DNA from: Balanoglossus misakiensis
Lineage: Eukaryota > Animalia > Hemichordata
Direction: 5' to 3'
Assembly (NCBI GenBank): GCA_040954595.2
Contig: CM082591.2
Location: forward strand, 8,050,047 to 8,114,046
Length of the DNA: 64,000 nucleotides
The notes beneath the pieces are model-generated. The model saw only the letters and a list, made by a program, of their open reading frames with translations. It was not told the origin of the DNA and searched no databases. Each line of letters starts with the position of its first letter. Position 1 is the stretch's first letter. Below are positions 3,001-46,900 of this stretch, in pieces. A program made the translations under genes and the position numbers.

Positions 3001-3490
3001 TGGATGTGTTTGAATGAGGCATTTTTGAAAGCCTTTGAATTTTATAATGTGGAAAATCCTGAAGAAAAACAAAATATCTGGATGGAAACTTGATCTAACC
3101 AATGAAGAAATCATAGAATCTCAGTTGCTCATGCTTTGTGCATGAATGTAAGCATGATTAGCACATGGATGTGTTTGAATGAGGCATTTTTGAAAGCCTT
3201 TGAATTTTATAATGTGGAAAATCCTGAAGAAAAACAAAATATCTGGATGGAAACTTGATCTAACCAATGAAGAAATCCTAGAATCTCAGTTGCTCATGCT
3301 TTGTGCATGAATGTAAGCATGATTAGCACATGGATGTGTTTGAATGAGGCATTTTTGAAAGCCTTTGAATTTTATAATGTGGAAAATCCTGAAGAAAAAC
3401 AAAATATCTGGATGGAAACTTGATCTAACCAATGAAGAAATCATAGAATCTCAGTTGCTCGTGTATTGTGCATGAATGTAAGCATGATCA
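1..3490. repeat. 165-bp tandem satellite, about 21 copies (runs off window start)
   Basis: Unit TTGTGCATGAATGTAAAGCATGATTAGCACATGGATG...CTCAGTTGCTCATGCT recurs at 1, 166, 331 and onward; copies are near-identical. Confidence 0.98.
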
Positions 3491-5086: not shown

Positions 5087-5904
5087 TCATGTCTGCTTGT
5101 AGAATACTTTGATTTGGTCGCTGGTCAACTCTCTAACAGCAATTCTGTCACCGCTGACTGCAAGGAACCAGGGGCTTGTCACCTCACCTTCAAATAAGTG
5201 ACAGATCCACTCTCCATCAAATCTCCATTTCACAATCCTATCATTCCTCCAATCACACACAAACAAATTATCGTCGTCATCGACGTCAATGCTGCTAGGA
5301 CCGAACAGCTGACCAGGACCTGAACCTTCCACACCAAATTGATACAAGAATTTCAATTCAGCATCAAAACACTTGATGCAGTGATTGCCGTAGTCAGACA
5401 CCATGATGACATTCTTACTGTTGACCACCACAGAGTATGGGGAACTGAATTGTGTTTGGCCACCGCCTCGACCACCAACCTCTGCAACATACTGACCATC
5501 TTGGGTGTACTTGAGTAGCCGATGACCTTCGAACTCAGTGACCAAAACAAATCCATTCAGTAGAGCGATGCCAGAGACATTGACGCCTGCAGGTAGAGTA
5601 ATTATTCTCAGAATTTTATTGTTTTGATCACAAACAACAATTTGAGAATTTCCACCATCACTTATGAAGTAGATGTTGTCATGGGAGACAGCTACATCCC
5701 TTGGCTGGAATGGCTTTGCAAACTGACCATCAAAACTTCCCAAGACTTTGTCACAGGTGTAATCTTGATTCAGTATCTGTACAACCCTGTTGCCTCGGTC
5801 ACACACCACCAGTTTGTCACCATGGAACACCATACGTCCTGGGTTCTTAAACTTTCGCCCTGGCTTTGGACTTTGGCCATCCAGTGTCCTCACTGACCAG
5901 TGAC
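5087..5904 (-). CDS. A, last exon: NHL-repeat six-bladed beta-propeller
   Basis: NHL motifs such as QFSSPYSVVVNSKNVIMVSDYGNHCIKCF and GQLFGPSSIDVDDDDNLFVCDWRNDRI. Acceptor cctaacag|GT; stop TGA at 5087. Confidence 0.92.
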
Positions 5905-8900
5905 CTGTTAGGTGAAACAGAGGTCAAAGGTCAAACATGCTGTACCCTATTGAAATGCATTAGGAATATGATGCTGGAGTTAGTGTTTTATTGTTCATTT
6001 TTACAAGAGCAAGCATATTACACAAGAAACGAATCATTGCTATGGCAACTGAACTACCAAAGGGCAGTTTCTCTACACAATGTTTACAGTGACAAGTAAC
6101 CATGGCAACCAGACTAACCCCAGTTTGCGGAACTATTTTTTATTGCTCTGCAATACCAAGGAAGAAATTTATTGTCTCTTTGTTGACAGATTATTATAAA
6201 ATACATGAAAGACTTTCTTATTTAACCATTCAATAGATATACTAACATTGATGTTACTATGGTAACGCATTTTAGGAAATCAGGTCAAAAATAATTTTTT
6301 TCTTATAACTTTTGACTTCATAGACATTTCATAAAAAATCTTGAACTAAACGTCTGGGATAATTCCTCAGTTCATTATTTTTCTGAACAAATTTATGATG
6401 GTAACATTATTAACTGGTAACCATGACAACTGAATTTATTTTGCAAAATATGACATTATGCAAGAGTTAGTGTTTTAATAAAATTTCTTTTAACAAATTG
6501 AATTAATGCTTGGATAAAATTTCTGCCAAAGTACCATATATGTTTTTCAATACCAAATAACCATGGTAACATACATGGAACAGATCAGTAAAACAATAAT
6601 CATTGTCTTTTAATTTTAAAGATGGTTATGTTGAATATATTGATTTTGATATTTCTTGACATGTTTACAATCATTTTGAACCACATACATGGCGGTTCTA
6701 AAGTAAACACATACTCGGAAAAACTTTGACTAGATGCCGAAATATTGCTTGCCCGTTGTCACGAATTACGCCGAGTCAGGTAGTTTCTATTCAAGAACTA
6801 TTTATTGTCCAGCATAACATCGCTAACAAACTACTCAAGTACATCCAAGATCCGCATCCCACTCGTGTTGCTTCCTTTGCACACGTTACATAATATGCTA
6901 ATGAATCACATGACATTATTTTAATCATCTGCTGATGACGTATCAGCACATCTCCCTTTCTTTTGAGTTTGTGACACTTTTACACATAAACAAACTTTCT
7001 GTTACGAATGCCAATGCAAATAAAGCTCAAATAAAACTCAAAATATCGTAATTGTCTTATTGTCTTTCATTAGTGTTCATTGTGGTAATATTGAAAGTAA
7101 TTGTCTCTACTAGGCTAATAATACTCAAACAAGTTACCCTATACAACTACACTTAGGGGTGGACTACCCTAAGCTTGACAGTGCCAGGGGATTATTCTGC
7201 CCCTCACAGTGGCATCTGCTTTCTATCTAGCCCTAATACTCATCGTGATATTTCACAGGTTTCTTCACGATTCGTCCACTTCTGGTTCGGACCTGCTCTC
7301 CTGTATTTTCCGGAGGTGGTGGTGTTATCTCTCCGTTTGTTGTAGCATCTTTTTCCCCTCTGGGTAGTGGACTTTCTTCTCTGGTTGGCATAACCGGATA
7401 CAATATTTGTTCCTTCGGTGGTGTTGCATTCTGGGATGACTTCTCTGGTCTCGATGTGAACAATAGATGTCTCCGGTTTCTCCTCAGAGTACCATTTGAT
7501 GTCTGTATGATGTAAGAACGTGGTGTTGTATCAGCACTGATTACTTTTGCTGGTGTTTTCCAACCACTTTCTCCATCCAATTTAACTTTGACCTCGTCTC
7601 CTGGCAACAGCTCTGGCAGGCTTTTCGTTCCATGTCGTTTATTGTATGCTCTTTTGTATGCATCTTTGGCCTTCTTATCTGCAGCTCGGACTGTCTTCAG
7701 GTCGGGCTGTTCCGGCACTAAATTTTGTGGAAGTGTTGGGAGTGTTGTGCGTATTTGACGTCCCATCATCAACTTGCATGGACTGGTGCCTGTGGCTGCT
7801 ATTGGAGTTTCTCTGTAACTCATCAGTGCAAGAAATGGATCTTCTTGCTTCAGGATTTTCTTCGCGATGCGAACGCCGCTTTCTGCCTCTCCATTGGATT
7901 GTGGGTAATGAGGGCTGGAGGTGTTGCATCGAAATCCATACTTTCTGCTAAACTCTTGGAATTCGAAAGCTGTAAACTGTGGACCGTTGTCGGAGAATAT
8001 TTCTTCTGGAATTCCCCATCTTGCAAACATATTCTTCAGTTGCCTATTATTTGTCGACTAGTAGTGGTGGTCATGTGTACAATTTCTAACCATCTGGTTT
8101 GGTAATCCATCACTACCATGAATTTCTGGCCATCGCATTCACAGAGATCGACCGCAATTTTCTGCCATGGCCTCTCTGGCAACGGGGTAGTCATCAGTGG
8201 TTCTCTTCTTTGGGTTGGTTTGTTTTCATTGCAAAACTTGCATGTGGATATCTTCTTCTTGATATGTTTTGCGATGCCTGGCCACCAAACTGACTGGATA
8301 GCTCGCTCACGGCATTTTGTCAAACCCTGATGTCCTTCGTGGATTCGGTTGAGGGTATCATTCCTCATACTTGTCGGAATCACGATTCTATCTTCATAGA
8401 GCACCATGTTGTTGATGACTGACAGTTGTCCCCTTACAGCGAAATATTTCTGTATTTCTTCTGGGACTTCTTTCGATCGTTTGGGCCATCCTAGTTTTGT
8501 AAACTCTAGGACGAGTCGTAGTTGGTCATCAGCTTGTGTTTGTTCACTGATCTCTTCCAGCTTTTTTGTTGAAACTGGTTTGCTTGCTTCCACGTACTCC
8601 ACGTGGGCTTGTACATCTTCCACGGTGGTTGGGCTTTCTGTACGTTTTACTGGAAGTCTGGAAAGTGTGTCAGCTACCACCAATTCCTTGCCTGGTACAT
8701 ACACTGCCTTGGCGTTGAACCTCATTAGTCGTAGTAGTAGTCGTTGACATCTCAGTGGTGTCTTGTCCAAATCTTGGCTGTTTATCAGTGGTACTAATGG
8801 CTTATGATCGGTTTCCAGGGTGAATGACTCCAATCCGGTCAGGTAACGTGAGAATTTTTCACATGCCCATACACCTGCAAGACATTCCTTTTCTATCTGT

Positions 8901-11900
8901 GCGTATCTCTGCTCAGCTTTGGTCAATGTGCGGGAAGCATAGGCTACTGGCCGTCGTCTATCTCCCTCATCTTGAAATAGGACTGCACCCATTGCGTAGC
9001 TGCTTGAGTCTGCACTCACCGTGATTGGTTTACTTGGGTCGTAAAATGCCAAAACCGGTGTTCTTGTTACTAATTCTTTCATTTTCTTAAAGGCGTCGTC
9101 TTGCTTTGGTCCCCAGAGCCATGCTGTATCACTTTTGAGTAATTCGCTCATTGGCTGTAGTGTGGCTGACAAGTTTGGCAGGAATTTTCCGAGGTTGTTT
9201 ATCATGCCAAGGAGTTGCTTCAGTTCATGTACATTGGTAGGGGGTGGAAGCTCTTCTATTGCTTTCACTTTATCTGGATCTGCGCTCACGCCATCTCCGC
9301 TAATTATCCCTCCAAAGAACTTGATGCTTGATTTCTTTATTTCACACTTTCCTTTATTTAGTTTCAGTCCGGAATGTTCTACCGTGTGAAGTGTTTTGTT
9401 GAGATGTTTATCGTGGTCATCTCCCGATTTCCCATGTATTATGATGTCGTCCATGATAGCCTCTACGTTGTCATGGTCACGCAACATGTCTGACATTACA
9501 CGCTGGAATATTTCGGGTGCTGAGGTGATTCCAAATGGCAGCCTTTTGAAGCAGAACCGACCAAACGGTGTAATAAATGTGGTCAACTTTGAGCTCTCTG
9601 GATCTAAGGGAATCTGCCAGAATCCACTTGAGGCATCTAGTTTGGAGAATACGTTGGATCCTGCTAGTTTTGGAGCTATGTCTTCTAATGTTGGGAGGAC
9701 ATATCTTTCTCTTTTCACTTCTTCATTTAATTTCCTCAGATCCACACAAATTCTGACTTTTCCACTCGGCTTTTGGACCACTACCATAGGAGCACACCAT
9801 TCTGTTGGCTCGGTAACCTCTTCTATAATTTCATTTTCAAGCATTCGCTGCAACTCTTCCTTCACTTTTGGAAGCATTGGAAATGGAACCCGTCGTGTTG
9901 TGTTTACACTGTACGGTTTAGCACCTTCTTTCAGCTGTATTTTTACCGGCTTACATTGCACTAAGCCTACATCTCCAAACACATTTGTTTGCTCAGGACT
10001 CTTTGGGTTACTGACCTCTTCGGCTCTAATTACCAGTCCCATCTGACAGGCAATCTCCCGTCCGAGCAGGTTGTTGACATGATCTCCCTGTATCACGTAT
10101 ATTGGTACAGAATAGACTTTGTCTTTGTAGCGGATGTGGGCTGTAAACTGACCTTTGCAATCCAGTTTTCCCCCTGGGCTCAATAAATCGGCATCGGGTG
10201 GTTTCAGTGGAGTGCCTCTGGCTATTTGTTTATATATCTTGTGTGAGATAACGGATATGTCGGCGCCCGTGTCGATCTTGAAATTAATGGTTTTCCCACT
10301 GACCTTCAAGTTTACTTGCCAAGCTGTCTTCATTTCCTCGGCTTTGGAAATGGCTCCCAAGAAATATGACCTTTTCTCCACTTCCTCAACGGTAGTTTCC
10401 ATTTTTGTCACCTCTTTCACATCTTTGCTTCTGCAAACGGTTGCGAAGTGGTTCATCTTTTTACATTTGTTACACTCTTTTCCTCGAGCGGGACACTGTC
10501 CTTTTGCGTGTTTCCGGCCGCACCTACCGCATGCACTTTTGGGATTTTCTTCTCCTTTCCCTTTTGGCGACCTGCCTTGTTTTCTACCCGGTTTGTACGG
10601 CGTTTTCCTTCTTTCGAAAACTTCGTCAAGGGCTTTGGCATGTCCTTGTGCTGAAACTTGGTCTTTTACCTTTTCTGCCTGTTTTGCCATCTCGATCGCT
10701 TTTTCAAGTGTCAAACCACTTTCTAATTGCATTCTTTGTGACACTTCCGAATCGAGTATTCCGACGACAATTCTATCCCGAAGACTTTGATCTCGAAATA
10801 CTCCAAAGTCGCAACGATCTGCCATGTCATAAAGATCTCTCAGAAATGCTTCTACGGGTTCCCCTTTTTGTTGTACCCGTTGGTTGAAACAGAGTCTTTC
10901 ATGAATGACGTTTGTTTTAGGGATGAAATGCTCGTCGAGTTTCAGCATAACGATGTCGTAGTTATTTTTATCAGTCTCAGCGGCGAATCTTAGTCCGGCA
11001 AAGACTTTATCGGCTTCTGGGCCCATGCTATAAAGGAGTGTGTTTACCTGGATCGCCCCAGATTCCTTGTCGAGCTTCGTAATCAGTCTGTACCTTGTGA
11101 AACGTGTCTTCCACGCAGGCCATTCCGCTACGTTGAAGCTGAAGCTTTCTGGCGGGTTAGCTTTCGGCATCTTGGTTTCCGTGTTCCTCGTCCGGGAAAG
11201 TTACTGGTACTGCACGGTTTTCACTGCTTTACCGCTGCCACCATGTCACGAATTACGCCGAGTCAGGTAGTTTCTATTCAAGAACTATTTATTGTCCAGC
11301 ATAACATCGCTAACAAACTACTCAAGTACATCCAAGATCCGCATCCCACTCGTGTTGCTTCCTTTGCACACGTTACATAATATGCTAATGAATCACATGA
11401 CATTATTTTAATCATCTGCTGATGACGTATCAGCACACCCGTCATCTGAAAATGACAACGCCGTTGGTCGCATGGCCAGATCACGTGATTGATAGTAAAG
11501 AATTGATTTTGATATTTCTTGATAACATTGTTACAATCATTTTGAACCACATACACATACTCTAGTTAGTAGGTCATCAAGTTCTTGGTTTGTGTTATAG
11601 GTCGGAAAAGAAAAATGCCTTATGAATGAGATGAATATACATTTGTTTCTTTTTCTAGTCGACCAGAGATGGTCTGCTTTCAAATCAGTAATTATCACAT
11701 TGGTGAAGAGAGAACAAATCTACTGTCCTCAGATGAGAAGGCTGCCACTTTCTGAGACCAAGTGAGTATTTTAGTTGAACAAATGCATGAGAAAATAATT
11801 GTTGTAACTTTAACTTCAGAGAATTTACTGATAATGTTGTCCTATAATAGTGGGCTACTTGAAACGAAAATAGACTATTGAAAATGGTAAAATAATTTGA

Positions 11901-14900
11901 GTAGAAAATCTATCTGAAAGAAGTTTGTTAATCATTGCAGATGATCTGAGAGATGGAAAACCTACAGTCACTTAGGATGAGTCATGATAAATGGTCTGTC
12001 TCAACGCCACTGGCTGTTCCAGATTGTCATTGGATAAAAAAATTGGTAAGTCCCTTATTTGAATTTCATAATTTAAATTGTACTATGAATGAAGTGGGGT
12101 AAGCTAAATGTATAAAACATACGCGTACGGTGCTTTTAACCCTTCCACCACCATGGTTTGGTCCAAGTCTGTTGTTTTCTATGGTAAATGTGGACCTCTA
12201 TAGAGGGAACTAGGGGGTAAAGGGTTAACATGTGGTCCTTGAGGAAACACTGAAAGACTATTAGCCACTGATGCTTTACTCTGAACAGATGATTCCAGTG
12301 AAATGTGTACTTTTACAGTTAGCCTCGACATTTTCTGAGCATGTCTGGTTTCATTGCCTTACCTTTCTCACCTGTAGTCTGTCTTTCTTTTGACTTTGGT
12401 TCATCTTGATTGGTTAGGTCTGCAGACCCAGATGACTCTTCTCTTGTTGTCTCAGGTTGTGTTGGTTTGGTTTTGGCATCCCCAGTTTCTTTTTCTGTAG
12501 TTGTCTCTGGTTGTGGATGTTTGGTTTCCCCCGATCCAGTTTCTTCTTCTCTTCTCATCTCAGGTTGTGTTGGTTTGGTTTTGGCATCCCCAGTTTCTTT
12601 TTCTGCAGTTGTCTCTGGTTGTGGATGTTTGGTTTCCCCCGATCCAGTTTCTTCTTCTCTTCTCATCTCAGGTTGTGTTGGTTTGGTTTTGGCATCCCCA
12701 GTTTCTTTTTCTGCAGTTGTCTCTGGTTGTGGATGTTTGGTTTCCCCCGATCCAGTTTCTTCTGCTCTTCTCATCTCAGGTTGTGTTGGTTTGGTTTTGG
12801 CATCCCCAGTTTCTTTTTCTGCAGTTGTCTCTGGTTGTGGATGTTTGGTTTCCCCCGATCCAGTTTCTTCTGCTCTTCTCATCTCAGGTTGTGTTGGTTT
12901 GGTTTTGGCATCCCCAGTTTCTTTTTCTGCAGTTGTCTCTGGTTGTGGATGTTTGGTTTCCCCCGATCCAGTTTCTTCTGCTCTTCTCATCTCAGGTTGT
13001 GTTGGATTGGTTTTGGCATCCCCAGTTTCTTTTTCTGCAGTTGTCTCTGGTTGTGGATGTTTGGTTTCCCCCGATCCAGTTTCTTCTGCTCTTCTCATCT
13101 CAGGTTGTGTTGGTTTGGTTTTGGCATCCCCAGTTTCTTTTTCTGCAGTTGTCTCAGGTTCTGGATGTTTGGTTTCCCCCGATCCAGTTTCTTCTTCTCT
13201 TCTCATCTCAGGTTGTGTTGGTTTGGTTTTGGCATCCCCAGTTTCTTTTTCCTCAGTAGTTTCAGTATCACCAGCTTTATTTGAACATTGAAATGAGAAG
13301 ACACAAATTAATTCCCTTGAGATTGTAATGTTAATAAATATATCTTTTGAAGCCTGATAAAGAGTGTTGAAAATGGTGAATGAGAATACCATGGTGACCT
13401 CAGTTTAAAGTAGAAAACAAATCAGAAACATTCTCGTATACAGTTAATGATAGTGAAAATTGAAGCAACAAGATAAAATGAAAGCCAATATGGTACATCC
13501 TCTGGATTGTTGTAATCATCAGCATGTCTCATTTACAAGGCTTAATAATAATATGAACCAGCCATTGTTTATGTCACATGTGACCACATCCCAAAGTAAA
13601 ACTTAAAATCAATCTCACCTTGTTCAGTTTTCAATGTGATCTCTTCTCCCAGTTGAAGAGCCATAGCCTTTTTCAGTTGCAGCTCATTATCATATTGCTC
13701 ATCATGTTTTTTTGATAATTTCAACTTGAGTTCAGCAATTATTTGGTCTTTCTGATCAAGTTTGGACTTCAACTCTTGGATGTGTCTAGGGTCTGATTCT
13801 TCTAATCTTTGCTTGAGGGAAATGACATCCAGAAGTTGTGTGAAAGCTACTTTTTCAGTTTTTTCAAGTTTCTGAACACAATCTTTGTACTGCTTTTCTA
13901 AGATGAACTTTTCCTGAATTGCTTCTTTCAACTGATTCTCTAGAATCGTGTTTTCTGCTCGAAGTTTGAACTTTTCTGCCAAGGTCTCATCCATCTGCTG
14001 TTTTAGAGATTTCTTATCTGATTTCAAGGACTGCATTTCTTGGAACTGTTTTAGACTAACTTCAAAGGGCAGTAAGCTTTGTGCTTGTGAGCTGATAGAT
14101 TCATCTGGAATGGAAAGAACTGGTGTGCCATATTGTATGATTTTCCCCTCCAAATCTGAAATGAAGTAGATTTAATAATTATTATTTAAATGTAGGATGT
14201 ACATTAAGCAATCTGCAGATGTCAAATACTTTCGTTTTACGTTCACCTTATTATTTAAATTTGTGAAGTAAATTTCACAATGCTATTGACCTTGGTAAGA
14301 TATGCAGGAAATGGCTTTGTCAAATTCAATAAATTTTGAATGCTCTAGTTTAGTATAAGTTGATAAAAAATAATACCGATGGATGAATGGCGATAATTGT
14401 TTGTTGTAACTTGTGAGTAGTCATTTTTAAAAACAAGGAAAATATTTCCGGTACTATTTGGCTGCTTTGTGTATCTTGGTACTGAAAGAAACAAATTCTG
14501 AGAGTTTCAGTCAAACCTTTGGAGTGTGTAATATGCTTGTCAGACTTGGTGACTAATGTAATAAAAATCATTATTACACCTCACGTATTATACCGTTTTC
14601 GTGATTGGCTGAGACGCGCTCACGTGATATAGAAAAAAAAGTGATATAACATGGCTAGAGTTGATAAAGCCCTGTCGTGTGCGCTGATATTGCCCGCTGG
14701 GTTGTTTTGGTGTTCTGCGCGCGACTTCTGCGCGTTCCAAACTGTCGTTCAATGGCTTCCTTCACGATCAGTCAACTCCCGCATCTATATGGCTTCAAAG
14801 CGACACACAGGCTTAACACCTGTTCAACTGGATGATATTTTACTGCAAACGGACAGTAAATACAACAAAATCGCAACCAACAGTGCAGTATTTTCAAAAT

Positions 14901-17900
14901 AATCTAAGTTCGAAGTAGGTATCGTATAATTCTTGGGAGATCGAGACATTTTACATTCTCAGCAACATACGACATATGGACGCGCGTCTACGTTCTTCTA
15001 TGCCTGCCTTGTATGTACGTTCAAATGTTCGGCGTAATAAAATTAATAACACATTATGCTCGGGCAACATCACGATTTGAAGCCTGCCCTCGGGCTGGTG
15101 ATCTCTGACCACAATATTGATGATACCCTCGCCTGCGGCTCGGGCATCATCAATATTATGGTCAGAGATCACCATCCCTCGTGCAGGCTTCAAATCGTGA
15201 TATTGCCCTCGCTATCATGTGTTATTATTTAACTGTTTATTACCTGATTCACTGAAATCAGCCCTTTCTGTGTCAGTCATAAGATACCTTCTTACACCCA
15301 GTAACTCTAAGATTTGAGGTCTGTGAGATAGGATATGCTGAACTTTCTTGGTCATTTTCCCCGATAGTTGTATGATGTCAAACTCTCTTCCTTTCTGTCT
15401 TTTACACTGCTCACTGTCAAATATCTGAGGTGCATGTTTGTCTGCTAACTTCTGGAATTTACATGTTGGATCAATCTCCAGAAATGTCTTGTATATTGTC
15501 CCACCTGCAAGACATACATGATGTACAATTCTTTTTTACTTTTTGGGTAAAACAATTCCCACCTTAATGATGAAATGTCTCTATCTGTGATTAAATGGTC
15601 TCTATCAAAGAGACCTAAAATGGCACCTTTGCCCAGAGTAATAGTAGGTTTAGGAAACTCAAATGATATAACAACATACATGTATGAACATGATGATAAA
15701 GCCCAAAATCTTGTACTTACCTCGTTTCAGGTCAATCTGGAAATGATCAGAATGAATTTCCATCTCTGCATTTTGGAAAGCCATGCATGTTCTGTGATCC
15801 TTAATTGGATATAATGGAGATTTAGTATTTATCAGTATATGGTAGTGAATAATTAGTAATACAGAATAACACATTATTGTTTTCAGAATCATTACAGTAA
15901 CTGTGTTGTCATTTAATTTAACATGATATTGTTTCATTCACTCACCTAACACACTAACATAACAATCTAAATATATCTTTACCTGATCAATTATATCATC
16001 ATCACTTTCCTCTTCTACACTGTCATCACACACTTTCACTGATCTTATTCCCCCACCATCTCCTGGAAGATAATAAAACAGGAAATGTATAGTGTAATAT
16101 GTACACTCTTGATTCTTTGGAAAAAATGTCTAAGACTTGAGAAATTAGCTTAGAGATAATACAGTTAACCATGCAACATGTTTTGATTTTGTTTGTCAGA
16201 AACAATTTTTATATTGCATCTTTAAAATTTATTTTGAAGTGTTTAGTGTTTCAGTGAAGTTTGCACCTTTGTTATAAGCTTTATAGTTACTATTTCTTTA
16301 CTTGCAAGAGAGGATGTCTGTACAGTCTAGTTCCAAAATGTAAAAATCAGAAATGTAAAATGTAAAACTAAAAATCAGAAACTTAGGAACAGACTTACTG
16401 TTCAGGAAGAATAGTTCCAGTTCATCAAATCTGGCTTGGTCATATGTAGCTATCAACTGTAGTGGAATTCCAGCTGTGTTGGCCTCTGTCATTTCATCTG
16501 TCATCAAGATTGGTTCTAATGCCTTGGCTAAACTTCTTGAATCTTCAAGACAGCTTCCCCGCAATCGGTAGAGATTATAAAGTCTACGCATGTTGGCTGT
16601 GATTTGCAGAGACCCTTTTTCCATATTGGTTATGTCCACTTCACCCAGTTTGTCATTGCAGGCCTTCTTGACTTTGTTGATGTCATCACCGTTGGTTACC
16701 ACTTCAGCTGCTCTTCTCTCCAACCCCTGTTTGCAGTTGTCCCAAGATGCAGAAGCCGCCTGCTGCATTGCCTCGTTCGGTGCTTCGTCTTGTAGATGCT
16801 GCTGATAGGCATTTTCATTCAGTCCGACATGGATTGTAATTGTTGTGTCATCATGGTTTTCTGTGTTTTGTAGCGGCTCTGCTGTCATACTTGTATCCGT
16901 TTCATCCAATTCCTTTATGTGGACTTTCGTAGTTTGTTGGTTTGTGTCATTCAATGCTTCTTCAGCTGTTCTCTTTGCTGGTGGTTGACTTTGTGTCTGC
17001 TGCTCTGCTGTTGTTGGATTTTGTTGACGGCCATCTCCATCTGGCTGGACTGGAACTGCAATTGCTGTTTCAGAATGGCAGAAGTACATAAGCTGTTTGA
17101 CATGTTTGAAGCAAACTCATTGTTTGAATGATTAGCTAGCTAACAGAAAGTTTAAACTGATAATAGAACACAAAATATCATATACAATGTAGCTCATACT
17201 GGTATATACCTCATATACCAACTTGCATTTAGATCTGGTCTTTCAACAACAACAAAATAGTACAGTTGGGGTATTGTTATGGGGAAACTTTCGAGCCACA
17301 TTATTTATTGACATGCTGCAACACTATCTGAATGAGGATTGAATTCAAAGTGCAGACATCCAGCCTTGAAATTGAAGAATAAAGAAAACTTAACCATGAA
17401 TACTTAACCAAACGTAAGATTACTTAAACTGTACCTGTTGCATTTTGTTTGTCCTTTTTAGTGCATTGGTCATGTTCATCTTCCTGTTGTTTTCTTGCCT
17501 TTGGTGTCAACATACTGGCAAATGTTGCATAACTCTTTTTGACATCTTCACTCTCCATGAAAGCCTTCTTCAGCTCCTTAGCTTCTTCAAAAGCTATCCT
17601 GGTCTTCTTGACATTCCATATTATCTTCTCCGAAATCTTATCAGATGAGTGTGACACTACAAATCTGTCTGCGTAGTATGGAAAGTATTTCTTGACGAAC
17701 TTTCCAAGCTGGGAATATTCAGTGGGATAGGTTGGTGTTCCGGATGCTACACCTTCTAAACCACTAAATCCATAGTCGACACTGAAAGGTGGTGGAAGGC
17801 AAATGTCAGATTGACAAAGTGATCTCCTTAAGGTCTTTGCCGAGTAAGCAGGGAGAAGATGTGCCTTTACGTGATCGCTGTTTATCTGCTGTAGGAGATA

Positions 17901-19565
17901 TTTTCGTTCAGCATGACCTGCTTGTCGAGAAGCTCCCTGTACTGACCATTTCAGAAGTTTGTCATAAACATCTTTCAGTACTTTTGCTGCACTTCCAATA
18001 GAAGCTGCTAGTGTCTCACATCTGTCCAGGGCTTCTTGGGTATCAATCTGTCCGTATGTCAGTATGCTGTGAGTTGTCACTTCATCTGGTAACTTTGGGT
18101 CCATCTTGAAAAAGACTTCAGCAGGTTTGGGTAAAATCTCTGCATGAGGGATCATGTGTAGTTCCCTGTCATCAAAGGGAGCCCGGTATTCGTTCTGGAA
18201 ATGCTCATACACACTTGGACCAATTGAGAATATGATGTCAGCTTCACTGGCCATCTTCAGCATCATTTCACTGAACTTTTCTGTTGATAATCCCAGCAGA
18301 CAGTTATCATCTTCATAGGCATGGTTGATCATCACTAGTTCTGCACTTGGAAATACTTTCTCTCTGATGTCTGCAGCAGCGAGGAAAGTCTTGGGAGCAT
18401 AACCAACAACATGCTGGATGTTTACAAGCTTTTGTAAGTCAGGATAGTAGATTTTATGATACATCAACCACTTTAATTCTGGCTTGTCTTCATCTGGGTC
18501 GATTCTTCCCTGTCTTTGTGCTGGAATCAATTTAACCCGACACTTGGCAGCATCTGCCTTCTGGTCATCACTGGCTTTGACACCAACAAAGGTGGAGTAG
18601 GCTTGAACAGGAGTTCCTTCTTCATCTTTCCTTGCACAGAAATCTTGTACAAGAATTCTGTGAAACCCAGTCAAGCCACAATCTTCTTTGTTCCATTCAT
18701 CATGCACAAATAATACTCCAGGAGGTGGATCTGGAAGATGGAGTTGATGAAGTTTGGCTTCAGGGAAGAGACTTGCGTGAATTGCTTTGGCTGCATTGTG
18801 TGTCTTTGGAGAATATCCGACTACATGTTGGATGTTTTTCAGTTTCTTCAGTCCTGGGAAGTGGATACTGTGGCTGACAAGCCAGTGTACTCCAGGGGGG
18901 TCTTCAGTAGAATTCAACCATTTGTCTCTTATAGCTGGGATCAAAGTAGCACCAACACTCTCTGCATCTTTCTTTTGTTCTTCACTAACTTCAACTTGAA
19001 GGGTAGTACAGAGGAATTCAGAAACATTCTCAGACTTTATCTTTTCATGGAACTCATTGACAAGCATATGACTTGGTTTTGTAATCTGCCCTTCTGAGGT
19101 TGTGTCCCAGGTTGGTAGCAGCAGTAACGCTGCAGCTGGTGGTTCAGGAAGTGAGAGTTGGTGAAGTTTGGCTTCAGGGAAGAGACTTTTACGAATTGCG
19201 GCTGCTGCATTGTGTGTCTGTGGAGAATATCCGACTACATGTTGGATGTTTTTCAGGTTCTTCAGATCTGGGAAATATATACCATGGTTAATAAGCCAGT
19301 TTACTCCAGGGGGGTCTTCAAGAGGATCTGCAGATGACCACTTATTTCTTGTAGCTGGGATCAAAGTAACATCAAATTTCTCTGCATCTTTCCTTTGTTC
19401 TTCACTCACTTCAACTTCAAGGGTAGTACAGTGGAATTCAGAAACGTTCTCAGACTGGAGTGTGTTTTCTTGGAGATGTTTGATTATAGCTTGAGTTGGT
19501 TGGGAGGTCTTTGCCTCCTTGTCCCATGATTTCAATACAACCAGTGCTGCAGATGGTTCTGACAT
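5087..19565 (-). CDS. Paralogue A: GT4-like / TRADD-N-like / coiled-coil / 36-aa repeat / NHL multidomain protein (about 1827 aa, 8 coding exons)
   Basis: Exons 19565-17435, 17064-16399, 16062-15983, 15799-15721, 15504-15244, 14155-13619, 13274-12363, 5904-5087. All introns are GT-AG with phases 1,1,0,1,1,1,1. Total 5484 nt, in frame. The same structure recurs in paralogue B. The start at MSEPSAAL is assumed (an acceptor lies 7 nt upstream). Confidence 0.8.
7233..8030 (-). CDS. Integrase core and C-terminus, separated from pol by a frameshift
   Basis: SDNGPQF...SSPHYPQSNGEAE, then TPRSYII and RTRSGR. One extra A near 8040 would restore RQIIGKLKNMFARWG. Confidence 0.92.
   Translation of the reverse strand: MFARWGIPEEIFSDNGPQFTAFEFQEFSRKYGFRCNTSSPHYPQSNGEAESGVRIAKKILKQEDPFLALMSYRETPIAATGTSPCKLMMGRQIRTTLPTLPQNLVPEQPDLKTVRAADKKAKDAYKRAYNKRHGTKSLPELLPGDEVKVKLDGESGWKTPAKVISADTTPRSYIIQTSNGTLRRNRRHLLFTSRPEKSSQNATPPKEQILYPVMPTREESPLPRGEKDATTNGEITPPPPENTGEQVRTRSGRIVKKPVKYHDEY
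8036..11170 (-). CDS. gag-pol (zinc knuckles, protease, RT, RNase H, integrase N-terminus)
   Basis: CGRCGRKH..C and CNKCKKMNHFATVC knuckles; FKIDTGAD; RLPFG...IMDDIII; ADSSSYAMG...ETDHKPL; HEGHQG...CKFC. Confidence 0.96.
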   Translation of the reverse strand: MPKANPPESFSFNVAEWPAWKTRFTRYRLITKLDKESGAIQVNTLLYSMGPEADKVFAGLRFAAETDKNNYDIVMLKLDEHFIPKTNVIHERLCFNQRVQQKGEPVEAFLRDLYDMADRCDFGVFRDQSLRDRIVVGILDSEVSQRMQLESGLTLEKAIEMAKQAEKVKDQVSAQGHAKALDEVFERRKTPYKPGRKQGRSPKGKGEENPKSACGRCGRKHAKGQCPARGKECNKCKKMNHFATVCRSKDVKEVTKMETTVEEVEKRSYFLGAISKAEEMKTAWQVNLKVSGKTINFKIDTGADISVISHKIYKQIARGTPLKPPDADLLSPGGKLDCKGQFTAHIRYKDKVYSVPIYVIQGDHVNNLLGREIACQMGLVIRAEEVSNPKSPEQTNVFGDVGLVQCKPVKIQLKEGAKPYSVNTTRRVPFPMLPKVKEELQRMLENEIIEEVTEPTEWCAPMVVVQKPSGKVRICVDLRKLNEEVKRERYVLPTLEDIAPKLAGSNVFSKLDASSGFWQIPLDPESSKLTTFITPFGRFCFKRLPFGITSAPEIFQRVMSDMLRDHDNVEAIMDDIIIHGKSGDDHDKHLNKTLHTVEHSGLKLNKGKCEIKKSSIKFFGGIISGDGVSADPDKVKAIEELPPPTNVHELKQLLGMINNLGKFLPNLSATLQPMSELLKSDTAWLWGPKQDDAFKKMKELVTRTPVLAFYDPSKPITVSADSSSYAMGAVLFQDEGDRRRPVAYASRTLTKAEQRYAQIEKECLAGVWACEKFSRYLTGLESFTLETDHKPLVPLINSQDLDKTPLRCQRLLLRLMRFNAKAVYVPGKELVVADTLSRLPVKRTESPTTVEDVQAHVEYVEASKPVSTKKLEEISEQTQADDQLRLVLEFTKLGWPKRSKEVPEEIQKYFAVRGQLSVINNMVLYEDRIVIPTSMRNDTLNRIHEGHQGLTKCRERAIQSVWWPGIAKHIKKKISTCKFCNENKPTQRREPLMTTPLPERPWQKIAVDLCECDGQKFMVVMDYQTRWLEIVHMTTTTSRQIIGN
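11231..11243 (-). other. Primer-binding site, tRNA-Leu type
   Basis: TGGTGGCAGCGGT lies directly inside the 5' LTR and is complementary to ...ACCGCTGCCA-CCA, the 3' end of metazoan tRNA-Leu(AAG/TAG). Confidence 0.8.
12140..12224. mobile_element. 85-bp piggyBac-type MITE
   Basis: TTAA|CCCTT...AAGGG|TTAA. Related copies near 42307-42392, 28663-28748 (inverted) and 27134 (partial). Confidence 0.75.
12363..13274 (-). CDS. A exon 7: 108-bp / 36-aa E/T/K/P-rich coding minisatellite, about 7.5 units
   Basis: Unit EKETGDAKTKPTQPEMRRxEETGSGETKHPQPETTA. Acceptor ataaag|CT, donor AAAG|gtaagg, phase 1-1. Confidence 0.85.
13619..14155 (-). CDS. A exon 6: coiled-coil
   Basis: Heptad-rich K/E/Q/L sequence; tttcag|AT...CAAG|gtgag; 537 nt in both paralogues. 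Confidence 0.85.
14571..15232. mobile_element. Non-autonomous element with subterminal hairpin (A-specific insertion)
   Basis: Absent at the equivalent site in B (about 47950). Hairpin 15062-15208 centred on CTCGCCTGCGGCTCG. Confidence 0.85.
15244..16062 (-). CDS. A exons 3-5 (80, 79, 261 nt; not correctly represented in the ORF track)
   Basis: Translate as RDGGGIRSVKVCDDSVEEESDDDIIDQ / DHRTCMAFQNAEMEIHSDHFQIDLKR / GGTIYKTFLEIDPTCKF...ERADFSES. Canonical splice sites; same exon lengths in B. Confidence 0.8.
16399..17064 (-). CDS. A exon 2: linker plus TRADD-N-like module
   Basis: Pattern MEKGSLQIT...LYNLYRL...LAKALEPILMTDEM...LQLIATYDQARF resembles invertebrate TRADD-N-like domains (recognised by eye). 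666 nt, phase 1-1. Confidence 0.6.
17435..19565 (-). CDS. A exon 1: two partial N-lobe repeats plus full GT4/GT-B-like domain
   Basis: VLFVHDEWNKEDCGLTGFHRIL (N-lobe), ADIIFSIG, HAEILP, ILTYG, SDICLPP..VDYGFSGLEGVASGTP (GT4 donor-binding-like motif). The motif QHVVGY[SA]P.T occurs three times. Confidence 0.85.
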
Positions 19566-28974: not shown

Positions 28975-29103
28975 GGTGGTTCTAAAGTGAAAACATACTC
29001 ATAAAAACTTTTACTGGATGCTGAAATATTGCTTGCCCGTCACCTGGAAATGACAACGCCGTGGGTCACATGGCCAGATCACGTGATTGGTAGTAAAGAA
29101 TTG
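28975..29103. repeat. Intact copy of the short interspersed repeat into which the gypsy element inserted
   Basis: Matches 6691-6756 joined to 11443-11503, with a single CCCGT at the junction. Confidence 0.85.
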
Positions 29104-29291
29104 TTGTACTGCACAGGAACACGTACACTAATGAATTTTCTGTTTCATTCACCAGGGCCAGGCTTTTGGCCAAGATCGGGCTGTATCTGACCCCTTTCCT
29201 TTTAGCATAGCGCAGCCAGTGGTGGGAATGGGGCAGGGGACCAGACTACTGCACTGGAACACACTAATGAATTTTCTGTTGCATTCACCAG

Positions 29292-40127: not shown

Positions 40128-40945
40128 TTATGTCTGCTTGTAGAATACTTTGATATGGTCTCTGTTCAACTCTCTAACAGCAATTCTGTCACCGCTGACT
40201 GCAAGGAACTCAGGGAGGCTCACCTCACGTTCAAATAAGTGACAGATCCACTCTCCATCAAATCTCCATTTCACAATCCTAGAATTCAACTGATCACACA
40301 CAAACAAATTATCGTCGTCATCGACGTCAATGCTGCGTGGATACCTCAGCTGACCAGGACCTCTACCATACACACCAAATTGATACAAGAATTTCAATTC
40401 AGCATCAAAACACTTGATGCAGCAATTGCCACAGTCAGACACCATGATGACATTCTTACTGTTGACCACCACAGAGTATGGGGAACGGAATTGTGTTTGG
40501 CCACCACCTCGACCACCAACCTCTGCAACATACTGACCATCTTGGGTGTACTTGAGTAGCCGATGACCTGCGATCTCAGTGACCAAAACAAATCCATTCA
40601 GTAGAGCGATGCCATAGACAATGATGTCTGCAGGTAGAGTAATTATTCTAAGAATTTTATTGTTTTGATCACAAACAACAATTTGAGAATTTCCATTATC
40701 ACTTATGAAGTAGATGTTGTCATGGGAGACAGCTACATCCCGTGGCTGGAATGGCTTTGCAAACTGACCATCAAAACTTCCCAAGACTTTATCACAGGTG
40801 TAATCTTGATTCAGTATCTGTACAACCCTGTTGTCTTGGTCACACACCACCAGTTTGTCACCATGGAACACCATACCTCTTGGTCCTTTAAACTTTCGCC
40901 CTGGCTTTGGACTTTGGCCATCCAGTGTCCTCACTGACCAGTGAC
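40128..40945 (-). CDS. B, last exon: NHL beta-propeller
   Basis: Same length as in A; about 30 aa differences; stop TAA. Confidence 0.92.
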
Positions 40946-43900
40946 CTGTTAGGTGAAACAGAGGTCAAAGGTCAAACATGCTGTTCCCTATTGAAATGCT
41001 TTAGGAATATGCTAGAGTTAGTGTTTTGTTGTTCATTTTAACAAGAGAAGCATATTACAAACAAAACGAATCATTGCTATGGCAACTGAACTACTAAAGG
41101 GCAGGTTCTCTACACAATGTTTACAGTGACAAGTAACCATGGCAACGAGACTAACCCCCAGTTTCTGGAACTATTTCTTTTTTTCTGCAATACCGAGGAA
41201 GAAATTTACTGTGTCTCTTTGTTGACAGATTATTATAATATGCATGAAAGACTTTCTTATTTAACCATTCAAAAGACATACTAACATTGATGTTGCTATG
41301 GTAACACATTTGAGGAAATCAGGTCAAAAATAATATTTTTCGTGTAACTTTTGACTTCATAGACATTTCATAAAAAATCTTGCACTAAACTTCAGGGATA
41401 ATTTCTTATATCATTATTTTTCTGAACAAATTTATTATGGTAACATTAACTGGTAACCATGACAACTGAATTTATTTTGAAAAATATTGCATTATGCAAG
41501 AGTTCTAAAGTGTTTCAATATAACTTCTTTTACCAAATCGAATTAATGCCTGGATAAATTTTCTGCCAAAGTACTATATATGTTTGAGGTTTTTCAATAC
41601 CAAGTAACCATGGTAACATACATGGAACAGATCAGTAAAACAATGATCATTGTTTTTTAATTTTAAAGATGGTTATGTTGAATATATTGATTTTGATATT
41701 TCTTGATAACATATGGTTACAATCATTTTGAACCACATACACATACACTAGTTCGTAGGTCAGCAAGTTCTTGGTTTGTGTTATAGGTCGGAAAAGAAAA
41801 ATGCCTTATGAATGAGATGTCGACCAGAGATTATAGTCTGCTTTCAAATCAGTAATTATCACATTGGTGAAGAGAGAACAAATCTGCTGTCCTCAGCTGA
41901 GAAGGCTGCCACTTTCTGAGACCAAGTGAGTATTTTTGTTGAACAATTAATGCACGAGAAAATAATTGTTGTAACTTTAACTTCAGAGAATTTACTGATA
42001 ATGTTGTCCTATAATAGTGGGCTACTTGAAACCAAAATAGACTATTGAAAATGGTAAAATATTGTTAGTAGAAAATCTATCTGAAAGGAGTTTGTTAATC
42101 ATTGCAGATGATCTGAAAGATGGAAAACCTGCAGTCACTTAGGATGAGTCATGATAATGGTCTGTCTCAACACCACTGGCTGTTCCAGATTGTCACTTGG
42201 ATAAAAAAATTGGTAAGTCCCTAATTTGAATTTCATAATTTAAATTGTACTATAAATGCAGTGGGGTAAGCTAAATGTGTAAAACATATGCCTACAGTGT
42301 TTTTAACCCTTTTACCACCATGGTTTGGTCCAGACCCATTGTTTTCTATGGTAAATGTGGACCTCTATAGAGGGAACTAGGGGGTAAAGGGTTAACATGG
42401 GGTCCTTGAGGAAACACTGAAAGACTATTAGCCACTGATGCTTTACTCTGAACAGATGATTCCAGTGAAATGTGTACTTTTACATTTAGCCTCGACATTT
42501 TCTGAGCATGTCAGGTTTCATTGCCTTACCTTTCACACCTGTAGTCTGTCTTTCTTTTGACTTTGGTTCATCTTGTTTGGTTAGGTCTGCAGACCCAGAT
42601 GCCTCTTCTCTTGTTGTCTCAGGTTGTGTTGGTTTGGTTTTGGCATCCCCAGTTTCTTTTTCTGCTGTTGTCGCAGGTTGTGGATGTTTGGTTTCCCCCA
42701 ATCCAGTTTCTTCTTCTCTTCTCATCTCAGGTTGTGTTGGTTTGGTTTTGGCATCCCCAGTTTCTTTTTCTGCAGTTGTCTCTGGTTGTGGATGTTTGGT
42801 TTTCCCCGATCCAGTTTCTTCTTCTCTTCTCATCTCTGGTTGTGTTGGTTTGGTTTTGGCATCCCCAGTTTCTTTTTCTGCAGTTGTCTCTGGTTGTGGA
42901 TGTTTGGTTTCCCCCGATCCAGTTTCTTCTTCTCTTCTCATCTCTGGTTGTGTTGGTTTGGTTTTGGCATCCCCAGTTTCTTTTTCTGCAGTTGTCTCTG
43001 GTTGTGGATGTTTGGTTTCCCCCGATCCAGTTTCTTCTTCTCTTCTCATCTCTGGTTGTGTTGGTTTGGTTTTGGCATCCCCAGTTTCTTTTTCTGCAGT
43101 TGTCTCTGGTTGTAGATGTTTGGTTTCCCCCGATCCAGTTTCTTCTTCTCTTCTCATCTCTGGTTGTGTTGGTTTGGTTTTGGCATCCCCAGTTTCTTTT
43201 TCTGCAGTTGTCTCTGGTTGTAGATGTTTGGTTTCCCCCGATCCAGTTTCTTCTTCTCTTCTCATCTCTGGTTGTGTTGGTTTGGTTTTGGCATCCCCAG
43301 TTTCTTTTTCTGCAGTTGTCTCTGGTTGTAGATGTTTGGTTTCCCCCGATCCAGTTTCTTCTTCTCTTCTCATCTCTGGTTGTGTTGGTTTGGTTTTGGC
43401 ATCCCCAGTTTCTTTTTCTGCAGTTGTCTCTGGTTGTAGATGTTTGGTTTCCTCCGATCCAGTTTCTTCTTCTCTTCTCATCTCTGGTTGTGTTGGTTTG
43501 GTTTTGGCATCCCCAGTTTCTTTTTCTGCAGTTGTCTCTGGTTGTGGATGTTTGGTTTCCCCCGATCCAGTTTCTTCTTCTCTTCTCATCTCTGGTTGTG
43601 TTGGTTTGGTTTTGGCATCCCCAGTTTCTTTTTCTGCAGTTGTCTCAGGTTGTGGATGTTTGGTTTCCCCCGATCCAGTTTCTTCTTCTCTTCTCATCTC
43701 AGGTTGTGTTGGTATGGTTTTGGCATCCCCAGTTTCTTTTTCTGTAGTTGTCTCTGGTTGTGGATGTTTGGTTTCCCCCGATCCAGTTTCTTCTTCTCTT
43801 CTCATCTCAGCTTGTGTTGGTATGGTTTTGGCATCCCCAGTTTCTTTTTCTGCAGTTGTCTCTGGTTGTGGATGTTTGGTTTCCCCCGATCCAGTTTCTT

Positions 43901-46900
43901 CTTCTCTTCTCATCTCAGGTTGTGTTGGTTTGGTTTTGGCATCCCCAGTTTCTTTTTCTGCAGTTGTCTCAGGTTGTGGATGTTTGGTTTCCCCCGATCC
44001 AGTTTCTTCTTCTCTTCTCATCTCAGGTTGTGTTGGTTTGGTTTTGGCATCCCCAGTTTCTTTTTCTGCAGTTGTCTCAGGTTGTGGATGTTTGGTTTCC
44101 CCCGATCCAGTTTCTTCTTCTCTTCTCATCTCAGGTTGTGTTGGTTTGGTTTTGGCATCCCCAGTTTCTTTTTCTGCAGTTGTCTCAAGTTGTGGATGTT
44201 TGGTTTCCCCCGATCCAGTTTCTTCTTCTCTTCTCATCTCTGGTTGTGTTGGTTTGGTTTTGGCATCCCCAGTTTCTTTTTCTGCAGTTGTCTCTGGTTG
44301 TGGATGTTTGGTTTCCCCCGATCCAGTTTCTTCTTCTCTTCTCATCTCTGGTTGTGTTGGTTTGGTTTTGGCATCCCCAGTTTCTTTTTCTGCAGTTGTC
44401 TCAGGTTGTGGATGTTTGGTTTCCCCCGATCCAGTTTCTTCTTCTCTTCTCATCTCTGGTTGTGTTGGTTTGGTTTTGGCATCCCCAGTTTCTTTTTCTG
44501 CAGTTGTCTCTGGTTGTGGATGTTTGGTTTCCCCCGATCCAGTTTCTTCTTCTCTTCTCATCTCTGGTTGTGTTGGTTTGGTTTTGGCATCCCCAGTTTC
44601 TTTTTCTGCAGTTGTCTCAGGTTGTGGATGTTTGGTTTCCCCCGATCCAGTTTCTTCTTCTCTTCTCATCTCAGGTTGTGTTGGTTTGATTTTGGCATCC
44701 CCAGTTTCTTTTTCTGCAGTTGTCTCAGGTTGTGGATGTTTGGTTTCCCCCGATCCAGTTTCTTCTTCTCTTCTCATCTCTGGTTGTGTTGGTTTGGTTT
44801 TGGCATCCCCAGTTTCTTTTTCTGCAGTTGTCTCAAGTTGTGGATGTTTGGTTTCCCCCGATCCAGTTTCTTCTTCTCTTCTCATCTCAGGTTGTGTTGG
44901 TATGGTTTTGGCATCCCCAGTTTCTTTTTCTGCAGTTGTCTCAGGTTGTGGATGTTTGGTTTCCCCCGATCCAGTTTCTTCTTCTCTTCTCATCTCAGGT
45001 TGTGTTGGTATGGTTTTGGCATCCCCAGTTTCTTTTTCTGCAGTTGTCTCTGGTTGTAGATGTTTGGTTTCCCCCGATCCAGTTTCTTCTTCTCTTCTCA
45101 TCTCTGGTTGTGTTGGTTTGGTTTTGGCATCCCCAGTTTCTTTTTCTGCAGTTGTCTCTGGTTGTGGATGTTTGGTTTCCCCCGATCCAGTTTCTTCTTC
45201 TCTTCTCATCTCAGGTTGTGTTGGTATGGTTTTGGCATCCCCAGTTTCTTTTTCTGCAGTTGTCTCTGGTTGTGGATGTTTGGTTTCCCCCGATCCAGTT
45301 TCTTCTTCTCTTCTCATCTCTGGTTGTGTTGGTTTGGTTTTGGCATCCCCAGTTTCTTTTTCTGCAGTTGTCTTTGGTTGTGGATGTTTGGTTTCCCCCG
45401 ATCCAGTTTCTTCTTCTCTTCTCATCTCAGGTTGTGTTGGTATGGTTTTGGCATCCCCAGTTTCTTTTTCTGCAGTTGTCTCTGGTTGTAGATGTTTGGT
45501 TTCCCCCGATCCAGTTTCTTCTTCTCTTCTCATCTCTGGTTGTGTTGGTTTGGTTTTGGCATCCCCAGTTTCTTTTTCTGCAGTTGTCTCAGGTTGTGGA
45601 TGTTTGGTTTCCCCCGATCCAGTTTCTTCTTCTCTTCTCATCTCAGGTTGTGTTGGTTTGGTTTTGGCGTCCCCAGTTTCTTTTTCTGCAGTTGTCTCTG
45701 GTTGTAGATGTTTGGTTTCCCCCGATCCAGTTTCTTCTTCTCTTCTCATCTCTGGTTGTGTTGGTTTGGTTTTGGCATCCCCAGTTTCTTTTTCTGCAGT
45801 TGTCTCGGTTTGTGGATGTTTGGTTTCCCCCGATCCAGTTTCTTCTTCTCTTCTCATCTCTGGTTGTGTTGGTTTGGTTTTGGCATCCCCACTTTCTTTT
45901 TCTGCAGTTGTCTCTGGTTGTGGATGTTTGGTTTCCCCTGATCCAGTTTCTTCTTCTCTTCTCATCTCTGGTTGTGTTGGTTTGGATTTGGCAATCCCAG
46001 TTTCTTTTTCCTCAGTAGTTTCAGTATCACCAGCTTTAATTCAAAATTGAAATGAGAAGACACAAATTTAATTCCCGTGAGATTGTAATGTTAATAAATA
46101 TATCTTCTGAAGCCTGATAAAGAGTGTTGAAAATTAAACAGAATATGGTGACCTCAGTTTAAAGTAGAAAACAAATCAGAAACATTCTCGTATACAGTTA
46201 ATGATAGTGAAAATTGAAGCAACAAGATAAAATGAAAGCCAATATGGTACATCCTCTGGATTGTTGTAATCATCAGCATGTCTCATTTACAAGGCTTAAT
46301 AATAATATGAACCAGCCATTGACCACATCCCAAAGTAAAACTTAAAATCAATCTCACCTTGTTCAGTTTTCAATGTGATCTCTTCTCCCAGTTGAAGAGC
46401 CATAGCCTTTTTCAGTTGCAGCTCATTATCATATTGCTCATCATGTTTTTTTGATAATTTCAACTTGAGTTCAGCAATTATTTGGTCTTTCTGATCAAGT
46501 TTGGACTTCAACTCTTGGATGTGTCTAGGGTCTGATTCTTCTAATCTTTGCTTGAGGGAAATGACATCCAGAAGTTGTGTGAAAGCTACTTTTTCAGTTT
46601 TTTCAAGTTTCTGAACACAATCTTTGTACTGTTTTTCTAAGAGGGACTTTTCCTGAATTGCTTCTTTCAACTGATTCTCTAGAATCGTGTTTTCTGCTCG
46701 AAGTTTGAACTTTTCTGCCAAGGTCTCATCCATCTGCTGTTTTAGAGATTTCTTATCTGATTTCAAGGACTGCATTTCTTGGAACTGTTTTAGACTAACT
46801 TCAAAGGGCAGTAAGCTTTGTGCTTGTGAGCTGATAGATTCATCTGGAATGGAAAGAACTGGTGTGCCATATTGTATGATTTTTCCCTCCAAATCTGAAA

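Follow-up and report, generated by a model that had tools for sequence, protein, structure and literature searches.

NHL domains are best known as the modules through which developmental regulators bind RNA or proteins. The window analysed here, i.e., the whole stretch of 64,000 nucleotides from the acorn worm Balanoglossus misakiensis, holds two copies of a unit of about 15-17 kb (copies A and B), each of which ends in an exon encoding an NHL propeller. An earlier, sequence-only reading placed the differences between the two propellers at the predicted ligand-binding face and pointed to strong diversifying selection or to patchwise conversion from a larger paralogue pool. The locus thus raises the question of what drives these differences and what such a propeller might recognise.

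Architecture of the two gene copies

Both copies comprise eight exons with seven GT-AG introns, and their open frames encode 1824 aa (A) and 2547 aa (B). The domain order is GT4-conflict, probable TRADD-N, a coiled-coil-like exon, a repeat linker and NHL (Table 1). NHL repeats (PF01436) were found above the gathering score in both terminal exons, with E-values of 4e-19 and 3e-15. The linker exon is an in-frame minisatellite, whose copy number shifts the linker length by about 860 aa.

Table 1. Positions of exons, variable patches, repeats and further features within the window
Feature	Position	Strand	Basis or remark
Copy A exon 1: two extra N-terminal GT4 half-repeats and GT4-conflict core	17435..19565	(-)	PF20706, E 2e-38
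Copy A exon 2: linker and probable TRADD-N (about 16399-16759)	16399..17064	(-)	
Copy A exons 3-5 (15983-16062, 15721-15799, 15244-15504)	15244..16062	(-)	GT-AG borders, open frame
Copy A exon 6: coiled-coil-like	13619..14155	(-)	judged from sequence
Copy A exon 7: 36-aa (108-bp) low-complexity repeat linker	12372..13274	(-)	7.4 copies
Copy A exon 8: terminal phase-1 exon, whole six-bladed NHL propeller	5087..5904	(-)	Pfam NHL E 4e-19, AF2 model, Foldseek matches, AG acceptor and open frame
Variable patches, blade 1 (residues 21-24, 37-38)	5792..5848	(-)	B equivalent 40833-40889
Variable patches, blades 2-3 (residues 84, 107-111, 125-126)	5528..5656	(-)	B equivalent 40569-40697
Variable patches, blades 4-5 (residues 154, 172-175, 193-195, 201-204, 219-222)	5240..5446	(-)	B equivalent 40281-40487
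Variable patches, blade 6 (residues 240-246, 261-264)	5114..5188	(-)	B equivalent 40155-40229
Copy B exon 1: one N-terminal half-repeat and GT4-conflict core	51115..52822	(-)	PF20706, E 7e-34
Copy B exons 2-6 (50083-50748, 49376-49455, 48439-48517, 47963-48223, 46358-46894)	46358..50748	(-)	
Copy B exon 7: same 36-aa repeat linker	42539..46033	(-)	31.5 copies
Copy B exon 8: paralogous NHL propeller	40128..40945	(-)	same as A in all 168 non-top-face residues
Extra N-terminal GT4 half-domain repeats	18729-19565; 52406-52822		two in copy A; one in copy B
Exonic in-frame 108-bp minisatellite	12450-13251; 42604-46010		
165-bp satellite arrays	1-3488; 37370-38526		21+ copies; 7 copies; directly 3' of both gene copies
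Gypsy/Ty3 LTR retrotransposon, intron 7 of copy A	6757..11437	(-)	RT, RNase H, protease, integrase-Zn Pfam matches
Second copy of the short interspersed element	28974-29103		
Exon-like ORF matching GNPTAB	29206-29568	(+)	E 3e-11
Tandem arrays (112-bp x30, 127-bp x7)	31697-35022; 59864-60766		between and beyond the genes

The TRADD-N segment gives no Pfam match. In the ESM Atlas, the copy B segment reaches 0.92 to TRADD-like_N clusters (210 of 256 features), and the ten best named matches all belong to one clan, although just 14-18% of the proteins in the top clusters carry PF20694. The putative segment is also matched in 33 hits from Ptychodera flava, in two of them over only 28 aa. Judged from these model-based matches, exon 2 probably carries a TRADD-N domain.

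The GT4 domain, which is conserved between A and B, shows a GT-B fold in the copy B model (pLDDT 67; best match MshA, E 5e-9), while a phmmer search of the core against the PDB found nothing. EX7E is the donor-binding motif of GT4 enzymes, in some of which one Glu is expendable (PMC8760489). Its first Glu is absent in all 19 aligned GT4 domains, with an Asp one residue later in 16 of the 18 from P. flava, and its second Glu is kept in 17 of these 18 and in the window. At the position presumed to hold the pyrophosphate-binding Arg of the GT4 Arg/Lys pair, Gln stands in 16 of 18 domains; this position lies in a low-confidence part of the model. Since the first Glu of EX7E is absent, the domain may be inactive or atypical as an enzyme. 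No RING or B-box was matched in the exon ORFs scanned (those longer than 26 codons), the N-terminus being GT4, and no NACHT or NB-ARC domain (STAND NTPase) was matched by Pfam in the window ORFs or in 16 P. flava relatives.

Several further features surround the genes. The satellite arrays are part of the duplicated unit and are a possible substrate for unequal crossing-over. The Gypsy/Ty3 element, whose pol ORF is divided between two frames within the integrase region, lies within a short interspersed element; it has 194-bp LTRs and a 5-bp target duplication, and its insertion is very recent since the LTRs are 100% identical. Between the copies, on the opposite strand, an exon-like ORF matches GNPTAB (GlcNAc-1-phosphotransferase alpha/beta). 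The two gene copies may lie in introns of a GNPTAB gene, or the ORF may be an isolated remnant. Elsewhere outside the two genes, 60 further ORFs were scanned with Pfam, and none gave a match above the curated cut-off.

Placement of the differences on the propeller

Exon 8 aligns codon by codon between the copies without indels. Thirty non-synonymous codons (16 with single, 12 with double and two with triple changes) account for 46 nucleotide differences, next to seven silent codons and a TGA/TAA stop difference. This reproduces the counts of about 46 and 7 given in the sequence-only reading, as well as all ten motif pairs quoted there. Its figure of about 30 differences in 268 residues is right in the numerator only, as the exon has 271 full codons. 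The contrast drawn with the other exons also stands: the coiled-coil exon differs by the claimed two residues, over 178 rather than 179 positions, and the GT4 exon core differs at 12 of 430 residues, five of them in the last eight codons, so that the stated number of about seven remains for the domain.

The AlphaFold2 model of exon 8 (37-sequence alignment) is a six-bladed propeller with pLDDT 94 and pTM 0.92, in which 24 strands make up six four-stranded blades closed by the N-terminal strand. Foldseek relates it to the NHL domains of Thin, TRIM2 and TRIM3 with TM-scores of 0.83-0.88 (TRIM2 0.88); with TRIM71 included the range is 0.81-0.88, and conserved TRIM-NHL domains as a whole span 0.78-0.88. 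In a propeller, the d-a and b-c loops lie on one face, and the faces were assigned from the strand topology of the model (DSSP), not from atomic coordinates. On this assignment, all 30 differences fall into the 103 predicted top-face codons (hypergeometric p 1e-14), i.e., 12 in d-a loops, 13 in b-c loops and five at the start of strand a, whereas the other 168 codons show no amino-acid difference. The first three residues of strand a were added as a class after the differences had been seen; the loop-only comparison without that class gives 25 changed residues out of 85 in the top loops and none out of 45 in the bottom (a-b, c-d) loops (Fisher p 9e-6). The differences form twelve separate patches of 1-7 codons each.

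Zebrafish LIN41 provides an external check. Fourteen of its residues, eight of them Arg or Lys, are named as RNA contacts (PMC5908797). Hand-mapped via the alignment, these contacts correspond to five register positions per blade (P-2, P-1, P+1, D+1, D+2), and 21 of the resulting 30 positions differ between A and B (p 1e-17, and 2e-8 within the top face), which supports the top-face assignment. The positions that build the basic pocket of LIN41/TRIM71 (P-1, P+1, D+1, D+2) differ between A and B and vary in P. flava; a conserved pocket is absent. Mapped onto the strand topology of the predicted structure, the variable residues thus lie on the predicted ligand-binding face and none is scattered.

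Does this clustering reflect selection? Over the whole exon, dN/dS (NG86) is 0.073/0.052, i.e., about 1.4, and with p 0.26 we discarded it as a test of selection. The raw 46:7 count alone is therefore no proof, and the case rests on the location of the changes. We used our own pairwise codon likelihood model, which compares M2a with M1a with no prior partition and draws on the two full coding sequences only. For the NHL exon, adding a positively selected class improves the fit (LRT 47, p 6e-11), and this class takes in 14% of sites at omega about 28; no such class is seen in the control regions (GT4 core p 1, exon 2 p 1, exons 3-6 p 0.16). With a fixed partition and shared time, the top-face omega is 5.9 (p 1e-6), and it is 3.3 if multi-nucleotide changes are allowed (p 0.018). 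Given its own divergence time, the top face has an omega of 2.4 with p only 0.051, because its silent divergence exceeds that of the framework (dS 0.10 against 0.02, p 0.03).

Variants in the same species and in Ptychodera flava

Three sequencing runs of the same species (X1-X3) come from one sample, possibly the source of the window, and are not independent of it. They contain hundreds of contigs resembling the NHL exon (340 in X1); the larger paralogue pool guessed in the sequence-only reading exists. In X1, between positions 5196 and 5490, all 34 variants with a share of at least 7% fall into 13 top-face codons of 97 (p 8e-7), where rare framework variants are under-counted because the cut-off is stricter in conserved stretches of high summed contig depth. 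Taken one at a time, 30 of them change the amino acid, and 20 introduce a letter that A and B both lack. At position 5303, 24 contigs carry a non-A letter, and 38 of 40 contig variants are top-face among the rows listed (of 222). The patches of blades 4-5 are the most variable ones in this pool. Two X3 contigs depart from the window sequence at the exon acceptor and then run in frame with other letters, a weak hint that they may be spliced transcripts of other paralogues. The depth of one collapsed contig is 40-124 times that of long single contigs, which we take as a hint and not as a copy number.

The nearest named relative is P. flava, with 53-64% identity over near-full-length matches. Among the best 150 matches of a 50%-cluster library, every single-stretch match above 50% identity comes from P. 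flava, and most rows are long bacterial-type repeat proteins; a metagenome scan with 187 pattern matches brought up no relative. In 50 distinct P. flava NHL domains, compared at the protein level only, entropy is 2.42 bits at the sites that differ between A and B against 1.01 elsewhere (p 1e-12). Of the 30 most variable sites, 27 are top-face and 16 coincide with A/B differences (p 4e-10), and a top-face excess occurs in each of 14 disjoint close pairs (299 of 435 differences).

GT4-conflict and NHL are combined in 19 of 82 hits, isoforms included, all of which are from P. flava; the GT4-alignment search of longer proteins covered 3496-5000 aa only. In P. flava, the same NHL subfamily is also carried by RING-B-box (TRIM) proteins, where chassis assignments rest on RefSeq models that may include fusions within tandem arrays. 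The P. flava proteins P0179 and P0019 present it as DED+NHL and DED+GT4+NHL. We built an unrooted tree from the framework columns of 32 rows of known chassis, dropping the top-face columns and leaving out 20 unlabelled rows and P0083. Here, TRIM-borne NHL domains group with 12 GT4/TRADD-N-borne ones (100/98), which indicates that the NHL exon has been mounted on more than one chassis, while an 11-row group with the window pair stands apart from the TRIM-containing group. A second candidate swap, the GT4 protein P0012 inside the TRIM group, was not retained, as TRIM monophyly is not rejected (AU p 0.142).

Taking the site model, the top-face clustering and its repetition in same-species copies and in P. 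flava together, the diversifying selection suspected from the sequence is supported: the top face of this multi-copy NHL family is under positive selection, with differences beyond the neutral expectation.

Proposed function, competing explanations and related systems

Going by the sequence data, the NHL propeller is likely the variable part by which an intracellular receptor, drawn from a germline repertoire, senses non-self molecules. In this view, non-self ligands would dock on the propeller face. Oligomers held together by the coiled coil, with the reach given by the long linker, would engage a repetitive target through several propellers at once and hence with avidity. A model for such multivalent binding is TRIM5, which binds capsids with avidity. 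Binding would trigger TRADD-N adaptor signalling or death or, as an alternative output, glycosylation or blocking by the GT4 domain. The frameworks would likely be held near-identical by duplication and gene conversion, while selection would keep the patches different and conversion would reshuffle them.

As regards the ligand, the contact positions are 22% aromatic, against 4% in the bottom loops, and 18% Arg/Lys, and they are net positive in 42 of the 50 P. flava domains. Arg and Lys over the 30 contact positions number 2 to 10 (4 and 6 in the two window copies), and the charge of the whole top face ranges from -8 to +9. Contacts that are aromatic and basic but variable in charge fit protein ligands best and leave room for RNA. 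A pathogen protein is our moderately favoured candidate, viral or transposon RNA seems rather unlikely, and a glycan quite improbable. A bolder version, which we put forward tentatively, is that acorn worms possess a germline, antibody-like library of intracellular NHL receptors. Each animal would have tens of frameworks that are almost the same, and micro-conversion would reshuffle the roughly 30 hypervariable contact residues of each. Encoded as a single plug-in terminal exon on TRIM, GT4/TRADD-N and death-effector chassis, the library would let one sensor repertoire feed several effector outputs, and it might read foreign RNA.

Selection may also be real but driven from within, by sequence-specific binding of transposon RNA or by allorecognition or gamete recognition rather than by pathogens. 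The variable sites do occupy the register that contacts RNA in LIN41, the contacts lean towards the basic side, and the fungal het-d/het-e propellers, which follow the same evolutionary pattern, act in allorecognition (PMC12222747). However, the wide spread in Arg/Lys number and charge is unlike the fixed basic pocket of LIN41. Hydropathy gives no transmembrane segment outside a propeller strand in the window genes, and their N-terminus is not hydrophobic, which speaks against a cell-surface role. In addition, the domains joined to the NHL propeller, i.e., GT4-conflict, TRADD-N, DED and RING-B-box, belong to immunity or cell death. We consider an endogenous driver unlikely.

Neutral patchwise conversion without positive selection, with more diverged paralogues as donors and purifying selection acting on the rest, would account for the raised silent divergence of the top face, for the 14 of 30 codons with multiple hits and for the three of seven silent changes that lie next to a changed codon (p 0.07). 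At the amino-acid level, a PHI-type test detects recombination in a 16-sequence P. flava TRIM clade (p 0.0005), but it is not significant in another clade (p 0.62, 0.82) and gives borderline values in other sets (p 0.04-0.12). The half-repeat of copy B is a mosaic that starts like the first and ends like the second of copy A, which indicates intragenic recombination; many P. flava relatives carry two such half-repeats. Given the raised silent divergence, conversion or old haplotype patches probably contribute. Yet neutral conversion cannot explain that twelve patches leave every framework residue untouched, and at the silent rate of the top face 23 changes are expected against 44 seen (p 7e-5). 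As a sole cause it is thus very unlikely. Patchwise conversion, as put forward in the sequence-only reading, probably holds as a contributor and not as an alternative to selection, and we read the variable patches as older ancestry inside a homogenised framework, i.e., as conversion plus selection.

Relaxed constraint, by which the top loops drift while the rest is conserved, would agree with the non-significant whole-exon ratio, and loops generally vary more than strands. It is contradicted by a non-synonymous top-face divergence (pN 0.185) four times that of introns and flanks (4.4%, 239 of 5445 aligned nucleotides), which corresponds to 44 changes against 10.5 expected from drift (p 1e-14), and by the unchanged bottom loops. 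Unless introns and flanks were homogenised far more recently than the exon, this explanation is hardly credible.

Equally far-fetched are somatic diversification, an assembly artefact (two haplotypes in tandem) and decay of copy A, for although A bears private letters at 5465, 5609, 5701, 5836 and 5839, where the letter of B makes up 77-100% of the X1 and X2 contig depth, and a recent retrotransposon, both ORFs are intact with all seven GT-AG introns, allele or paralogue status leaves the clustering unchanged, and the pattern recurs in P. flava. C>T and G>A changes together account for only eight of the 34 pool variants, which shows no deaminase signature. Somatic diversification, which the sequence-only reading had raised, is not supported. 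A few of the differences of A may still reflect decay that has just set in, as suggested by the retrotransposon in intron 7 and by Arg24 in place of a Gly that all 50 P. flava domains share; this would touch few sites.

We therefore return to the reading of a germline-encoded sensor for non-self molecules. To our knowledge, the immune repertoire of hemichordates is barely described, and hypervariable NHL contacts would add a recognition scaffold to invertebrate deuterostome immunity, beside LRR, PRYSPRY and WD40 sensors. The family offers a testable handle on the proposed GT4 effector, and the A/B pair, with an identical framework and 30 changes on one face, is a natural experiment on ligands.

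Among known systems, TRIM5/TRIM22 and the fish finTRIM proteins with B30.2 (PRYSPRY) domains form expanded families in which a coiled coil precedes a C-terminal recognition domain under positive selection. The present family shares the coiled coil and the selected C-terminal domain, and its NHL subfamily also occurs on RING-B-box proteins of P. flava; it differs in that the variable domain is NHL and that the window genes have GT4/TRADD-N and no RING-B-box. The fold of tachylectin-2 is of the propeller type. In corals, tachylectin-2 is a recognition protein with positive selection, but it is lectin-like, was studied as alleles of one locus and is not an NHL domain fused to effector modules (PMC2880987). 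The NHL domains of LIN41/TRIM71, Brat, TRIM2/3 and TRIM56 have the same fold and ligand-contact register (PMC5908797), and TRIM56 is antiviral, with an NHL-like domain that binds viral RNA (PMC6623546). These conserved proteins are low-copy, with a conserved binding face in LIN41/TRIM71, whereas in the present family, with its many close paralogues, this face is hypervariable.

The combination of GT4 and TRADD-N, the latter of the DEDD2 clade, is a described invertebrate conflict chassis, for which TRADD-N or GT4 was proposed as the output (Kaur et al. 2021, PMC8195603). Like these proteins, the window genes place a domain that is probably TRADD-N after GT4-conflict, belong to a lineage-specific expansion in a hemichordate and end in a variable module. 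Among the rows listed for Saccoglossus (30 of 35), LRR, Bcl-2 or ankyrin follow GT4+TRADD-N, whereas NHL follows in the window; in amphioxus, variable WD40 propellers follow DED-TRADD-N (PMC8195603). As a domain label, NHL did not turn up in the searched text of 13 supplementary files of that paper (file 2, which gave four letter-string matches, is an alignment), and the parts of it that were covered contain no site-level selection analysis. The window genes thus probably belong to the GT4+TRADD-N group, with an NHL sensor unlisted in the parts covered. Searches of the open literature brought up no hypervariable NHL family in hemichordates, while subscription journals, supplementary tables and bioRxiv supplements may describe one. 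Term searches likewise gave no mention of the family in the papers on the P. flava genome (PMC11175523), the amphioxus pangenome (PMC12373286) and the Saccoglossus poly(I:C) response (PMC10210618).

Similar in evolutionary terms are the HNWD NLRs het-d/het-e of Podospora, where a propeller sensor with a near-identical framework, kept so by concerted evolution, and few hypervariable codons of the interaction surface under diversifying selection is joined to an N-terminal effector (PMC12222747). They differ in using WD40, in homogenising repeats within a gene instead of between genes, in needing a NACHT domain, which is absent here, and in serving fungal allorecognition. The window genes would work like HNWD receptors and TRIM-B30.2 families but belong to neither. 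The GT4+TRADD-N chassis and variable propeller sensors are therefore already known, and the proposed hypervariable NHL sensor family is what seems new with respect to the open literature, while the evolutionary logic of a variable sensor on a constant effector is familiar.
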